64,000 nucleotides of DNA from an uncultured Chroococcidiopsis sp. (GCA_964248365.1 CAXTYC010000025.1:1-64000); one strand, 5' to 3'. Counted from the stretch's first letter, positions 29,407-35,139 are shown. Notes: generated by a model not told the origin, from the letters alone. A program made the numbers and translations.

Positions 29407-29630
29407 TAGGGGAACTAGGGGAACCAGGGGAACCAGGGGCTAGAGGAACTAGAGGAACCAGAGGAACCAGAGGAACTAGAGGCTAGAAGAGGATGGGGGG
29501 CAGGGGGTGACAACCAAAAGGGGGAAAGAGGGGGATTTGAATACTTCCCCTTGTCCCCTTGTCCCCTTGTCTCCCTGCTCCCTTTGCTCCACGAGGCGAT
29601 CGCGTGGCTCCAGAGGCTCCCCCTGCTCTC
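29407..29630. repeat. Composite STRR tract (GGAACCAGA / GTCCCCTT units)
   Basis: Purine-rich tandem units followed by pyrimidine-rich units. Confidence 0.75.
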
Positions 29631-29726: not shown

Positions 29727-30791
29727 GTGCGTTTAGGGCAATGGCTCGGTTTACTCGCCCTGGTTATCTCTCTTTACATTCTGTGGCAAATCCAGCAAAT
29801 TGTTTTACTGGTTTTTGCCGCTGTAGTTTTGGCAACAATATTAAACCGAGTCGTGCGATTTTTGCAGCGATACCGAATTAAACGCGGTATTGCGATCGCT
29901 ATTACAGTTTTGCTTTTACTAGCCTTAATCGTTGGCTTTTTCGCTGGAATCGTACCAAGTTTTCTCGATCAATTACAACAATTAATCAAGATCTTGCCGA
30001 CGCTAACAGATAGAGTGCGATCGTGGATTGACTGGGTACAAAGTCGAATCCCAGGAGGAATAGCCGAGAACTTCCAAGGAATTAATTCTCTGACTCAAAA
30101 CCTACAAACTTGGATAGGTAGGCTACTTGGCAACTTTCTTGTCATCATCAATAACTCGCTTGCCGCTGTCGTTAACTTTTTGCTATTTTTAGTTTTAACC
30201 ATAATGACATTGGTCAATCCCACCCCATACCGCCGCGTTTTTATCCTTGCCTTTCCTGCTTTCTATCGGCGACGAGTTGAGGAAATATTAGATGAGTGCG
30301 AAACATCTTTGGTAGGTTGGATCAAAGGTACTCTGATTGATATGCTCGTCATCGCTGTCTTGAGCTATATTGGTCTGCTGCTTTTGCAAGTGCCACTGCC
30401 GTTAGTCAATGCTGCTTTAGCAGGATTATTAGAATTTATTCCTAACGTTGGACCCACTCTTAGTGTAATTCCACCCGCACTGCTTGCTTTGACAGATGAG
30501 CCGTGGAAAGCAATAGCAGTGATAGTTTTATATGTTGTGATTCAGCAGTTTGAAAGCCTGATTTTAGTGCCTTTAGTTATGGCACAACAAGTGTCTTTAC
30601 TCCCAGTCTTTACCATTTTGGCAGTGGTAGTTTTCGCTAGTTTGTTTGGATTTTTAGGTTTATTTCTCGCCATTCCCTTGCTAATTGTCACTCAGATTTG
30701 GTTAAAAGAAGTTTTAGTGAAGGATGTTTTGAATAAGTGGCAAAGGAAGGAGGATAAGGAGGACAAGCATACAAGAGGAAATGAAGTATGA
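29727..30791 (+). CDS. AI-2E family transporter
   Basis: Multiple TM segments; LEFIPNVGP, IQQFES..LVP, GLFLAIP. Confidence 0.9.
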   Translation: MRLGQWLGLLALVISLYILWQIQQIVLLVFAAVVLATILNRVVRFLQRYRIKRGIAIAITVLLLLALIVGFFAGIVPSFLDQLQQLIKILPTLTDRVRSWIDWVQSRIPGGIAENFQGINSLTQNLQTWIGRLLGNFLVIINNSLAAVVNFLLFLVLTIMTLVNPTPYRRVFILAFPAFYRRRVEEILDECETSLVGWIKGTLIDMLVIAVLSYIGLLLLQVPLPLVNAALAGLLEFIPNVGPTLSVIPPALLALTDEPWKAIAVIVLYVVIQQFESLILVPLVMAQQVSLLPVFTILAVVVFASLFGFLGLFLAIPLLIVTQIWLKEVLVKDVLNKWQRKEDKEDKHTRGNEV

Positions 30792-31038
30792 GTGGTAAAA
30801 CTTAAAAAATTTATTTTTATGGGGGGCAGGCGAGCGCTCCAAAAAATGTAGTAATTGAGCTTTGTTGATAGAGTAAATTTATTTATTTTTAAAACAATTC
30901 ATACTTGCTAAAAAAAGTGTATGCTACCTATCTATATATTTTTTTAGATGCTATTTTATAGAAATGATATAGAGAAAATTTCTGAATAATGCACTGATAT
31001 GGAACGCTCTTTAAAAATATTTTGGGTATCACCAAAAA

Positions 31039-31113
31039 ATATACGGAAAAATTCTAGATCATGTGCCAGATAGGATATATACGGGAAATTTCCGTATAAT
31101 AGCGAGTTAGATG
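31039..31113 (+). mobile_element. attI-like recombination site
   Basis: Direct repeat ATATACGG (31039, 31077), dyad TATACGG-N7-CCGTATA, then the core GTTAGAT (GTTRRRY) at 31106. Confidence 0.5.
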
Positions 31114-31167
31114 GTTAGCCGTAACTGTTTGGCTTCACGTTCCATGAGAGGCAGTGATGTGATTACT

Positions 31168-32226
31168 TCAGGCTTGCAAAAGAAAATCTCGAACAACTTC
31201 TGCAACAACTTGTGCTAGGTTGCAGGGGACAGCATTGCCTATTTGCCTGTAGATCGAGCTTTGTGTGCCGATAAACTGGTAATCATGTGGAAAGGTTTGT
31301 ATTCTTAGTGCTTCGTCAACTGTCAATCGTCTAAGTCTTTTAGGTGCAGCTTCTATTGGTAGTGGTTTTCCCCCTTTCATCAAGTAAGAGTGATACCATT
31401 CAACCCAGCTATCTTGGTCAAAATAGCAATGGTCTTCATCAATAATTGGTGTTTTATTCCCACCCATAGAAGCATGGAGAGCGCATGAGTATCCATCAGG
31501 ATTTAATGGTCTTCCTTGACCATTGAACAACATTCCTGCATAGGGAGATCGTCGCATTACAGGCTTTGCGGCGATAGTAACTTTTGCATTGCATATCCGC
31601 TGATTGTTCTGGGAACCTGCCACACCTAGAGGTGAAACGATATCTCTAACTGTTGGAGCTTGCTTCTTATATCGCTCGAACTGTGCCTCTAAATCACTAA
31701 TGTCTACAATATCCCGAAACCCAATCAGAAACATTCGTTCTCTGGATTGTGGTACGCCGAAATCAGATGAATTGAGTATCACTAACTTGTACGTATATCC
31801 CAATTGACTGGCAAAACGAAAAAGTTGTTGGCGAACCTCAGCCCACTTGTCAAGAACTGCTAGTGCCTTGACATTCTCACAGATAAAAACCCGAGGCTTT
31901 GTGAACTCCACAGCCTTCATGAATACCCATAACAATTTGCTACGCGGATCATCAGGGTTCATCTTGCCAGCCACAGAAAAACCCTGGCAGGGTGGACCAC
32001 CAAAAACAAGATCGATCCCCTCGAATCGACGTATATCAATCAACTTTTCACTTATGTCGCCGCACTTGATAATCCCTCCAGGGTGGTTTGCCTCATATGT
32101 GAGACAAGCATCTTTGTCAATGTCATTAGCACCAACAACCTCGACTCCTGCGCGGATGAATCCAACATCCATACCTCCTGCGCCTGAGAAAAGTGAGAGT
32201 CCTGATAAAACCAGTTTGTTCTTCAT
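31168..32226 (-). CDS. C5 cytosine DNA methyltransferase
   Basis: Motifs FSGAGG, GPPCQGFS, ENV, QSRER, RQIGNAV. Confidence 0.95.
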   Translation of the reverse strand: MKNKLVLSGLSLFSGAGGMDVGFIRAGVEVVGANDIDKDACLTYEANHPGGIIKCGDISEKLIDIRRFEGIDLVFGGPPCQGFSVAGKMNPDDPRSKLLWVFMKAVEFTKPRVFICENVKALAVLDKWAEVRQQLFRFASQLGYTYKLVILNSSDFGVPQSRERMFLIGFRDIVDISDLEAQFERYKKQAPTVRDIVSPLGVAGSQNNQRICNAKVTIAAKPVMRRSPYAGMLFNGQGRPLNPDGYSCALHASMGGNKTPIIDEDHCYFDQDSWVEWYHSYLMKGGKPLPIEAAPKRLRRLTVDEALRIQTFPHDYQFIGTQSSIYRQIGNAVPCNLAQVVAEVVRDFLLQA

Positions 32227-32227
32227 G

Positions 32228-32244
32228 TATGCGATTTTGGCATA
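32228..32244. promoter_or_regulatory. Candidate controller-protein operator
   Basis: Dyad TATGC-N7-GCATA in the 47-bp gap between the divergent methylase and HTH genes. Confidence 0.45.
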
Positions 32245-32273
32245 TTTGCCTTTCCAAATCAATATCAAAAATT

Positions 32274-32534
32274 ATGGAAAGTCAAAAGCAATCTATCTCT
32301 AGTATTCATGATCCCGAATACCACAGGATCGTTGATGCGCTTATTTCCTTAAGAGAAAAAGCGAAACTCTCTCAGAAAGCAATTGCCCAGGAGATTGGCT
32401 TGACGCAACCTGACGTTTCCAAAATAGAACGTCGGGAACGTCGAATCGACATCCTAGAAACATTACGATGGGTGCGGGCTACAGGTGCTGACCCTAGTGA
32501 GTTCTTCGCACAGTTTGCTAATTCAAAAAGTTGA
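32274..32534 (+). CDS. XRE-family HTH protein (R-M controller-like)
   Basis: LREKAKLSQ..IA..IG.TQ..VSKIERRERR; lies immediately upstream of the endonuclease. Confidence 0.85.
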   Translation: MESQKQSISSIHDPEYHRIVDALISLREKAKLSQKAIAQEIGLTQPDVSKIERRERRIDILETLRWVRATGADPSEFFAQFANSKS

Positions 32535-32536
32535 GC

Positions 32537-33679
32537 ATGACCCTTTCCAAACCAACCGTAGATCACACACTAGCCGAGCAACTTCTTTGGGAAGCAATAG
32601 AAATCGCACAAGATGACTCCAGACAAATTCCTGCGACACAATGGGATGCCGAGATCAGAACAATCATTCAAGGAAAACATCTGACTTTCAGATACATTCT
32701 CGTGACTGCTCTTTTAGGAAAAGCAACTAACCCGAGCATCAATGCCCTTGCTCTTCAAGCAGGTGCTGATCTTGAAGGAGCTTATGATGCCCGCAGCTTG
32801 TGTCATGGGATTGTTGTGCCGCTTGAGCGTCAATTGCTGAACCGTTCGCTGGGAGGTTCAAATGAGCCATTTCTCAATAAGCCCGCCCGCTTTCCAACGA
32901 TATCCCCATCAAATGCTGTGAGGGCTGGTAGGGATAGAGAGCTTTTGCTTATACTGCACAAGGTGCTGTCCGAGATAGAAACGTCTGAGCAAGCTTTCAA
33001 TAGTCTCTGTATTGCCGTGCATTATACCATTGAAAGACAAACTGCTCGAAATGGGCTTCTTCCTCAACTTTCAGAATCGGCAGACTCCCACTTAAAAATC
33101 ATTGAATTTGTTGATGCATTTGTCACAAGATCGATTGAGGGTCAGGTTGCTGCAATCGTAGCAGGAACTATCCTATCCACATATTTTGACCAGTTTGAAG
33201 GCTTTGAGGTCATTGTCCATCCGGTTAATCAAAGTGGCGCTTCCTCCAATGAAGTGGCAGATATAGACATCAAGAAGAATGGTAAAATCTTTGTGGCAAT
33301 TGAGGTTAAGGATAAACAGTTCAGTGAGCAGGATGTTGATCATGCTGCTTTCAAAGCGAGTCAATATAGCTTAAAGTCAATCACGTTCGTCATTGGAGTA
33401 AGTGGAACGTGTATCGGTTCATCTCTTGAGCAGGTTGCAAAAACTGTTTTGCTCACGAGAAACGTTAATGTCATTTTTGTTGATATTGTCTCCTTTATTA
33501 GATCGGTAATTGCATTATGTCCAGAGCTTCCCTTTGCCACATTTTTTGCAAAGCTCCAGTATTATGCAATCAGCGCTCGGGTCAAGGATGAAGTCTTTGA
33601 GCATATTGAACGTGTTTTCCAATCCATACAAGTTCCGTCCAACCCCCCATCTCACACTTCGCAGGAGCGGACGGAATAG
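32537..33679 (+). CDS. Type II restriction endonuclease, SacI-like family
   Basis: Motifs YDARSLCH..VVP, LGGSNEPFLNKPAR, catalytic ADID..EVKDK; divergent from the C5 methylase. Confidence 0.8.
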   Translation: MTLSKPTVDHTLAEQLLWEAIEIAQDDSRQIPATQWDAEIRTIIQGKHLTFRYILVTALLGKATNPSINALALQAGADLEGAYDARSLCHGIVVPLERQLLNRSLGGSNEPFLNKPARFPTISPSNAVRAGRDRELLLILHKVLSEIETSEQAFNSLCIAVHYTIERQTARNGLLPQLSESADSHLKIIEFVDAFVTRSIEGQVAAIVAGTILSTYFDQFEGFEVIVHPVNQSGASSNEVADIDIKKNGKIFVAIEVKDKQFSEQDVDHAAFKASQYSLKSITFVIGVSGTCIGSSLEQVAKTVLLTRNVNVIFVDIVSFIRSVIALCPELPFATFFAKLQYYAISARVKDEVFEHIERVFQSIQVPSNPPSHTSQERTE

Positions 33680-33735
33680 AGATGGTTGGTGAGGATGCGG
33701 AGGTTACTTGCTGCGGCTTATCTCAACCGTTAGAC
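33649..33735 (+). mobile_element. attC-like integron cassette recombination site (degenerate)
   Basis: R'' ATCTCAC, 5 nt, L'' GCAGGAGC ... L' GCTTATC, 6 nt, R' GTTAGAC; 87 nt in total. Confidence 0.6.
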
Positions 33736-33795
33736 GAGCTTTCACAAATGGCAGAAAACCAGCGATTTTTATAGGTAGATGTGCTAGATAAAAAT

Positions 33796-35139
33796 TTATT
33801 TCCCCACTAAGCGACGGTAAACTGTAGCTAGAGCAGGGTCATCGCCGACATTGCCTGGAAACAATACTACAGGTAGATTGGGAAACTGAGGGTGATCTGC
33901 CCCAGTGCGTACCATTGAACATCCTGCTAAAATTTGACCGAGTAGCCGTGCTGAAGTCAAAGCAAGTCCCTTACTCAAGACATCGTTGGAAGTAATACCA
34001 CCTTTGCTGATTAAAAATCCAATATCTGCGGGTAAACCGTGTACTATATCCATTAATAAGGCAGAAACATCTGCGCCAAACTGCAAGCGTGTCTGCATAT
34101 CTGCAAACACTAATTCCTTACGACTGGTATAAACCACTGGTGTTTTGCCAGCATTATGTGCCGCATGAACTTTTTCTAAAGTAGAGTTAAGTAACTTTCC
34201 TGGTTGCTCTAATGAATCATCCAGTAATTGAGCTACATCGACTTCAATGCCGACTATATTCTTTTCTTGTAACAACACATCCAACTGCTGGCTAGTTTTC
34301 TTGACGTGGGAACCGACAATGATCGCACCTGGTTTACTACCTCGCACATATTGCGACATTTCCTCGGCTGGAACTGGTTGAGGCGGTAATCCAGCTAAGG
34401 CGGTTAACAGGCTAGCAGCACTGCGAAATAAAAAGCGTTTACCCTCGCTTGCTGCTGTGAGAATATCCTTAGCAAAAGAGTTGAGATCGTCTATAGTTTC
34501 GGCATCAACAGCTACACATTTGTTACCTGTGAGACTTTTTAACCGTTCCAATGTAGAGATTTTACCTGTAACGTCTTTACCGCTGCGAATATCTGTTAAT
34601 AAAAATCTTTCTACTGCTTTGGCTGGGATACGCCCTTTAGTCTTTTCTTCAACGTAATCAGGTAAGTAACTATAGGTGTAACCAAAAACTGAATCACGGG
34701 CAAACTCAGTTTCATGGACGGGAGTAGGAACACCGTCAATAATTAGATAGTGTACGCTGTCGCGGGTGACTCTTCCGCCTTCAAAGAAAGCTGGAACGAG
34801 GAAATGGGCATCAAAAGGACCAAGTTCAGAGGCAATTACATCAGTTTCAATCGGGTAATGCCCCCGTAAGGTAGAATCAGAACGACTGACAATCAGGAAA
34901 TCTTGAATATTTTCAGCTTTCAATGCTGGTTTGAGGTTGCGGCAGACTTCTTGGGTAACAGATGCTGCTTGATCTGGGGGAAGCGATCGCGTATTTGTCA
35001 GTATAAAGAAAATTGGCGACTCATCCCGCAATCCCAGCCTTAAAGTGTCCACATCCCACCGCATCAGCAATAGGCAACTGTGAACGGTTTGAGAACCAGT
35101 AGGATCGTCATCGAGAACAATAATTTTAGGAGTTGCCAT
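33796..35139 (-). CDS. Four-carbon acid sugar kinase family protein (DUF1537)
   Basis: Motifs LDDDPTG, RSDSTLRGH, KGGITS, FPGNVG. Confidence 0.88.
   Translation of the reverse strand: MATPKIIVLDDDPTGSQTVHSCLLLMRWDVDTLRLGLRDESPIFFILTNTRSLPPDQAASVTQEVCRNLKPALKAENIQDFLIVSRSDSTLRGHYPIETDVIASELGPFDAHFLVPAFFEGGRVTRDSVHYLIIDGVPTPVHETEFARDSVFGYTYSYLPDYVEEKTKGRIPAKAVERFLLTDIRSGKDVTGKISTLERLKSLTGNKCVAVDAETIDDLNSFAKDILTAASEGKRFLFRSAASLLTALAGLPPQPVPAEEMSQYVRGSKPGAIIVGSHVKKTSQQLDVLLQEKNIVGIEVDVAQLLDDSLEQPGKLLNSTLEKVHAAHNAGKTPVVYTSRKELVFADMQTRLQFGADVSALLMDIVHGLPADIGFLISKGGITSNDVLSKGLALTSARLLGQILAGCSMVRTGADHPQFPNLPVVLFPGNVGDDPALATVYRRLVGK

Follow-up and report, generated by a model that had tools for sequence, protein, structure and literature searches.

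A decayed restriction-modification integron cassette at an integrase-less attI site of a Chroococcidiopsis genome, and different cassettes at the same site in relatives

The segment 31107-33729 of the window, i.e. of the whole 64,000-nucleotide stretch analysed here from an uncultured Chroococcidiopsis sp. (genome G000), is a real though decayed integron cassette with restriction-modification (R-M) genes, and it sits in an attI without integrase. The attC element at its right end, the homology of its left flank to attI, its exact boundaries, the absence of intI and the presence of different cassettes at the same core in relatives are observed and lead us, with high confidence, to the fuller reading of a 2.6-kb methylase/controller/SacI-family cassette at the attI core of an intI-less integron, where it was likely inserted by IntI-type attC x attI recombination. 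The coordinates and motif spacings of the R-M block in the initial annotation all hold; what that reading lacked is that the left core, judged by alignment, belongs to an attI that shares homology with those of intact cyanobacterial integrons. The main features are:

29727..30791, plus strand: host AI-2E family transporter gene, left flank (Pfam PF01594; adjoins the kinase gene in 6 genomes)
30941..31105, plus strand: remnant of the intI start-to-crossover region, the attI upstream arm (nhmmer profile from 8 intI-linked loci)
31094..31112, plus strand: attI simple site with L box GTATAAT at 31094-31100, 5-nt spacer and core G/TTAGAT, crossover after 31106 (geometry as in attI beside intI in relatives)
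31107..33729, plus strand: integron gene cassette, 2623 bp (boundaries from reciprocal comparisons with relatives)
31168..32226, minus strand: C5 cytosine methyltransferase, 352 aa from the ATG at 32226 (PF00145; PADLOC MTase_II)
32274..32534, plus strand: XRE/HTH_3 controller (C) protein, 86 aa (PF01381; PADLOC Control_protein E 1.3e-7; PDB 3f6w, 2ef8, 3eus)
32537..33679, plus strand: SacI-family type II restriction endonuclease, 380 aa (PF09566 E 8e-109; PADLOC REase_II)
33649..33735, plus strand: eroded attC of an 86-87-nt cyanobacterial family (covariance model match, pair line, folding)
33796..35139, minus strand: host gene with sugar-binding and nucleotide-binding domains, right flank (PF07005, PF17042)

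The block of methylase, HTH protein and endonuclease proposed initially is confirmed by family matches, with the C5 methylase on the minus strand (DNA_methylase E 1e-69) and the controller (HTH_3 E 8e-8) and SacI-family nuclease (RE_SacI E 8e-109) on the plus strand. The PDB match 2ef8 of the controller is titled only 'putative transcription factor'; we take it to be C.EcoT38I. The methylase retains its catalytic motifs, and the nuclease shows a D...EVK motif at residue 242 and a tail that runs into the attC. Because these motifs are present and dN/dS lies between 0.05 and 0.17 in 12 out of 12 gene pairs (methylase 0.09-0.16, controller 0.05-0.15, nuclease 0.13-0.17; pairwise values that do not isolate this branch), the R-M genes look maintained. 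One additional base near 31180 shortens the variable tail of the methylase by a frameshift; the orthologues have 372 aa and a stop inside the core site in all four shown. Both enzymes with their catalytic motifs, a controller gene before the nuclease gene and a conserved palindrome upstream of it together fit a C-controlled type II R-M system.

The start codons of methylase and controller are 47 nt apart, and the spacer between them holds three predicted elements:

32228..32244, no strand: palindrome TATGC-N7-GCATA, likely operator of the controller (near-invariant in aligned spacers)
32234..32262, minus strand: predicted methylase promoter with -35 TTGATT, 17 nt, -10 CAAAAT, 7 nt, ATG (positions, conservation)
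32237..32265, plus strand: predicted controller/nuclease promoter with -35 TTGGCA, 17 nt, -10 CAATAT, 8 nt, ATG (positions, conservation)

The palindrome is unchanged in 18 of 19 aligned spacers, in contrast to the variable bases around it, and the motif ATCAA(G/T)AT is found in all 19 at a fixed distance from it. Both proposed promoters have 8 of 12 consensus bases, which is under the threshold of the promoter scan, and neither was listed by it. From this arrangement we infer that the module has two overlapping, divergent promoters of its own, both of which would give leaderless mRNAs, and that the HTH protein regulates the module with the palindrome as its likely operator. With such promoters an integron promoter would not be needed. 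As regards a Pc promoter, the attI L box contains TATAAT, and the scan listed no promoter there. Bound to the palindrome, a controller dimer would cover the -10 element and start of the methylase and would sit at the -35 element of the controller-nuclease promoter, and its binding would damp the methylase and time the synthesis of the nuclease once the module has entered a new cell. For C proteins, both leaderless controller mRNAs and weak -10 elements have been reported (PMC2632904). As in the C-protein-controlled type II systems treated in the accessible text of that study, the XRE controller lies upstream of and co-oriented with the nuclease, the palindromic operator has ATG-CAT ends and a leaderless mRNA is predicted; unlike in those systems, one operator in the short spacer overlaps both predicted promoters (PMC2632904).

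The nuclease likely cuts a GAGCTC-related site. We take GAGCTC to be the recognition site of SacI. Avoidance in the genome cannot single out the target, because next to GAGCTC (observed/expected 0.03) and GAGCCC (0.05) about 20 palindromes are also below 0.2. Searches of plasmids, phages and literature returned no named specificity for the nuclease. On the scale of the whole genome G000, about 20 six-base palindromes are strongly avoided (observed/expected <0.2) and 5556 HIP1 sites are present.

The right end of the cassette has the R''-L''-L'-R' layout claimed in the initial annotation, namely R'' ATCTCAC (33649-33655), 5 nt and L'' GCAGGAGC (33661-33668) in the left arm and L' GCTTATC (33716-33722), 6 nt and R' GTTAGAC (33729-33735) in the right arm, 87 nt in total. 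It is matched with 52.2 bits (E 2e-13) over its full length, positions 1-87, by the covariance model R1, whose 10 training attC sites all come from genomes other than G000; the element thus has the layout of a 3' attC, extrahelical bases included. Within the window R1 gave 11 matches, the second best with only 13.1 bits, and in 7 genomes of the genus it found 3-14 sites per genome. The training stems covary; the figure runs high and the covariation is inflated, because 8 of the 10 sites were chosen by a pairing filter. Members of this 86-87-nt attC family, which are about 69% alike, were found at loci near intI genes and intI fragments. Two results speak against the element when taken alone. 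The bottom strand of 33649-33735 folds no better than shuffled sequences (z +0.82), i.e. without significant structure, and plain BLAST of the genome found no second copy. R1 gives three sites genome-wide, with 33649-33735 among them. Owing to the non-significant folding and the BLAST result, the attC profile was needed.

The poor folding goes along with signs of erosion. R'' reads ATCTAAC in 5 of the 6 orthologous cassettes compared and also in G020, hence the CAC found here is derived. In folding, four of five attC sites from orthologous cassettes give the canonical, recombinogenic hairpin, with AAC intact (-9 to -15 kcal/mol); the element 33649-33735 fails to do so and folds at -4.5 kcal/mol with unpaired R boxes. 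In its pairing under the R1 model, only 7 of 12 L-stem pairs are Watson-Crick. Because the R'' change is derived and the attC no longer folds, this copy of the cassette is likely locked, which agrees with the immobility suggested at the outset from the AAC-to-CAC change. Point changes that arose afterwards in R'' and in the L stem likely locked in the copy 31107-33729, with help from post-segregational killing.

At the left end, the core GTTAGATGG (31106-31114) is complementary to CCATCTCAC at 8 of 9 positions, as previously noted. The rule that a 5' core complements the cassette's own R'' was found with 9/9 positions in six and 8/9 in two of 8 first cassettes tested, and with 9/9 in 5 of 6 orthologous cassettes. 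The boundaries are fixed by reciprocal comparison. Genome G005, of the same genus, follows the window as far as 31110 and resumes the match at 33738; at the same G/TT it carries a different cassette of 1667 bp with an HNH gene, whose own core and R'' agree at 9/9 positions. In G006 and G020 the R-M module resides at other loci and the match to the window starts only at 31107; thus, homology to G005 stops and homology to G006 and G020 starts at the attI core, and the cassette moves as a unit bounded by two G/TT cores. The end of homology at the left boundary is no proof alone, because the ancestral methylase stop codon falls within the left core, at this boundary, and the nuclease tail extends into R''; the doubt raised by these gene ends is removed by the swap in G005 and the att contexts. 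The initially claimed delivery by IntI-type recombination, which would have placed the cassette at G/TT 31106, is consistent with the attC match, the attI homology and the exact boundaries. In composition, the cassette is close to the genome (G+C 44.1% versus 43.4%), and it lacks HIP1 sites where 2.75 are expected, a weak signal.

Before 31106 lies AT-rich DNA that can be aligned with the intI start-to-crossover stretch of relatives. An nhmmer profile of this region from 8 intI-linked loci of relatives matches 163 nt at 30941-31103 with E 1.6e-5, which ranks second of 8 matches genome-wide, while a locally shuffled genome gave none; a shorter profile was too weak (window E 1.3) and the longer one succeeded. 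The attI arm comprises 26-nt dyad units at 30965-30990, 31037-31062 and 31075-31100. Because a recognisable attI is present, the locus is better regarded as an integron remnant than as an attG insertion. Compared with a complete integron, attI is present and an adjacent intI is absent. No IntI coding trace was detected at the locus in six frames, and the search of the assembly for intI found none intact (best TIGR02249 score 49.7 bits, cut-off 265) and none beside the cassette. This cut-off was passed in 8 of 61 genomes searched, G000 not among them, and none of 14 translated tyrosine recombinase frames was IntI-like; apart from an N-terminal pseudogene on contig C10, the assembly showed no clear intI trace. 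In 6 family-level genomes the AI-2E gene lies directly beside the kinase gene with no integron between them, so the integron platform was likely gained in this lineage. The kinase gene is presumably of the four-carbon acid sugar kinase type, and we take the neighbourhood in the window to include atpB/atpE and minCDE-like genes, which together with the 5556 HIP1 sites marks the host as a cyanobacterium. To see if the platform as a whole inserts in the manner of a cassette, empty sites were compared at the aroA locus and around the integron of G003, where the flanks are too diverged to fix the platform boundaries.

The same cassette has been found in at least 22 other genomes at unrelated loci. 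The search with the nuclease confirmed 156 relatives, and the 80 kept contain at least 24 loci in 22 genomes titled cyanobacterial or Sericytochromatia, one of which duplicates G006. Among 18 homologous left edges, six are exactly GTTAGATGG, seven are near variants and five are without the core. By the R1 model, an attC follows the nuclease directly in 7 of the 24 cyanobacterial or Sericytochromatia loci, some of which end earlier, and also in two gammaproteobacterial loci, one of them beside intI; a Methylomarinum record (L161) has the methylase-nuclease pair inside a complete integron. Four orthologous cassettes are preceded by attI-like DNA and one by another attC, and the copies in G006 and G020 sit at sites without attI-like flank. 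A test of 36 loci for IntI was negative throughout; one of them had no more than 0.5 kb of upstream DNA.

Two other sites may be mentioned here. One intergenic site (L086, L087, L088 and L022/L024 in G003, G001, G002 and G006) is occupied by different inserts in same-genus genomes: one is the R-M cassette, another a D12-methylase module and a third a longer insert. The att ends at this site are eroded, and an attI-like flank is absent. At the site that holds the R-M cassette in G020, L081 and L082 (G019, G015) show an insert of two genes and, behind it, a second copy of the 3' end of the upstream gene that includes a HIP1 octamer; the insertion was possibly HIP1-mediated.

The different cassette of G005 already indicates that the dock is not frozen with the present R-M cassette, because relatives with the same intI-less flank carry other cassettes. 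This flank is colinear between G000 and G005, with no gap above 2 nt in 350 bp apart from an end offset. A contig of run X7 leads from the AI-2E gene end over 238 nt to the attI and the start of a third cassette, leaving only these 238 nt where intI would be, and two contigs of run X6 depart from the window at the same locus. Several different cassettes use the same base at the dock and all observed swaps keep G/TT. The metagenome contigs are supporting, not decisive, because they are placed at 80-85% likeness. Metagenome searches with the right-junction pattern gave no match and with the left-junction pattern 7 matches, none from this locus; a clean empty attI at this locus was not found among the contigs, and no RNA data set was listed as containing the sequence. 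As separate observations, contigs of X6, X8 and X9 with a loose end before window position 31092 show the same cassette behind another attI that resembles the attI on C9, and a contig of run X1 from a close relative, placed on window 30596-33991, carries this cassette at the corresponding locus and lacks 30931-31125, so that the attI and left core are gone; this deletion is a further step of domestication.

Alternative readings concern both how the cassette came to its place and what has driven the exchange. That the motifs are chance matches, and that the R-M genes arrived otherwise with shared homology ends that are simply ORF ends, could draw on the ancestral methylase stop at the left edge, the nuclease tail in R'' and the non-significant folding; given the covariance match of E 2e-13, the unrelated G005 cassette sharing both junctions and the canonical hairpins of four out of five orthologues, its probability is close to nil. 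A real cassette might instead have entered a non-classical genomic attG site, giving a SALIN, with the AT-rich flank resembling attI by chance. No intI is nearby, insertion at GWT sites has been shown by Loot et al. (10.1101/2022.09.11.507474, as far as its accessible text goes) and the copies of G006 and G020 have no attI-like flank. This view has to account for 163 nt that match the intI-start/attI profile with E 1.6e-5, against none in the shuffled genome, for the preserved L box-5 nt-core geometry and dyad units and for several different cassettes at the same base, and we regard it as very improbable.

The more serious question is whether cassettes were exchanged after intI had been lost, which would point to an IntI acting in trans. 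The cassette differences could predate the loss of intI, or reflect differential loss from an ancestral multi-cassette array or homologous replacement via natural transformation, all without IntI in trans. Since G000 and G005 are only 80-85% alike at the locus, much time has passed since their split; the two genomes retain different amounts of intI at the argD-prlC locus, hence parallel intI decay does happen; and the attC family itself is only about 69% alike. Against such explanations, the colinear intI-less flank in both genomes points to one shared loss, the G/TT base is kept in every observed swap and the X7 contig has a further cassette start with only 238 nt in place of intI. We give turnover without IntI in trans nearly an even chance, and differential array loss or transformation accounts for the data nearly as well as IntI in trans. 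The simplest reading, by a little on the favourable side of even, is that IntI in trans has driven turnover since intI was lost. In its widest form, still tentative and in our view somewhat doubtful, scattered integrase-less attI docks exchange defence cassettes as a distributed integron, with an IntI in trans patchily present in the lineage, and provide one supply route for large R-M repertoires.

Parts of this picture are already known, i.e. R-M cassettes, cyanobacterial attC sites, for which a model has been published (PMC8352920), and intI loss. Type II restriction systems occur among the defence cassettes of sedentary chromosomal integrons, and cassettes with their own promoter have been described (10.1101/2024.07.02.601686). 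Like there, a type II R-M system is packaged between att sites; unlike there, according to the available part of that study, our case has a cyanobacterial host, three divergent genes with a controller, a single cassette and a dock without intI (10.1101/2024.07.02.601686). In Xanthomonas, integrons with inactivated or deleted intI have been reported, and as here the platform was kept after intI loss and R-M systems are among the cassettes (10.1101/2025.06.18.660453). In the accessible text on Xanthomonas a common intI lesion goes with usually identical arrays at a conserved locus, whereas the shared loss here goes with different cassettes and 8 attI-profile matches (7 at E <0.1) are scattered over one genome. 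By definition, our locus scores as a SALIN, i.e. a single attC without integrase (PMC4889954; 10.1101/2022.09.11.507474); unlike a SALIN derived from attG it has a recognisable attI, so that another att site does lie nearby. Insertion of cassettes at GWT (attG) sites is treated by Loot et al. (10.1101/2022.09.11.507474), a possible trans mobilisation of CALIN cassettes is already in print (PMC4889954), and the SALIN/CALIN surveys could not search most attI sites, as stated in the parts available (PMC4889954; 10.1101/2022.09.11.507474). The accessible portions of PMC8262939, PMC2853133 and PMC4991836 had nothing specific to add. In the literature covered, mostly outside subscription journals and without supplements, no study had cyanobacterial attI or turnover at an intI-less attI as its main subject, which suggests that cassette turnover at dispersed intI-less attI sites is apparently new; that IntI in trans drives it is a proposal only.

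These findings provide a recognisable attI pattern for cyanobacterial integrons, consisting of L box, 5 nt, core and dyad units at intervals of 32-41 nt, a pattern that standard surveys could not search. With it, some elements classed as 'single attC' become integron remnants. Moreover, one regulated R-M module travels as a cassette across many cyanobacterial lineages. R-M barriers are a main obstacle to transforming cyanobacteria. If orphan docks are indeed served in trans, integrase absence would not equal a frozen array, and R-M barriers could turn over at predictable sites.

Several other integron traces were recorded. In G000 the intI N-terminal pseudogene lies with an attC at C10:65227-67999, five more attI-like stretches are found at C9:92922-93070, C11:76128-76204 and 91748-91870, C2:73083-73160 and C32:38683-38821, and an isolated attC is located at C20:10534-10621. 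In G005 the C10 locus is present as well, there with other cassettes (AIPR, TacA-GNAT), and the C9 insert is absent. In cyanobacterial attI regions (L035, L039, L040, L041, L034), the stretch from intI start to crossover has 3-6 copies of the 26-nt dyad unit, mostly 32-41 nt apart, and a divergent type of the unit, missed by the matrix, was seen in G003, G039 and L100; a description of this unit was not found in the literature searched. The same attI end motif precedes cassette-like starts in GC-rich metagenome contigs (L184, L185, L187-L190), with no IntI match on the DNA fetched, and the attI type may extend beyond cyanobacteria. The first cassettes of 10 intI-linked arrays (L033, L044-L048, L050-L053) carry R-M-related Pfam families in 4 and toxin-antitoxin-type families in 3 cases, with 3 unassigned, in a tally for which two intervals were estimated and not anchored. 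Finally, a repeat of about 76 nt at window 29500-29580 has copies on C2 and C20.
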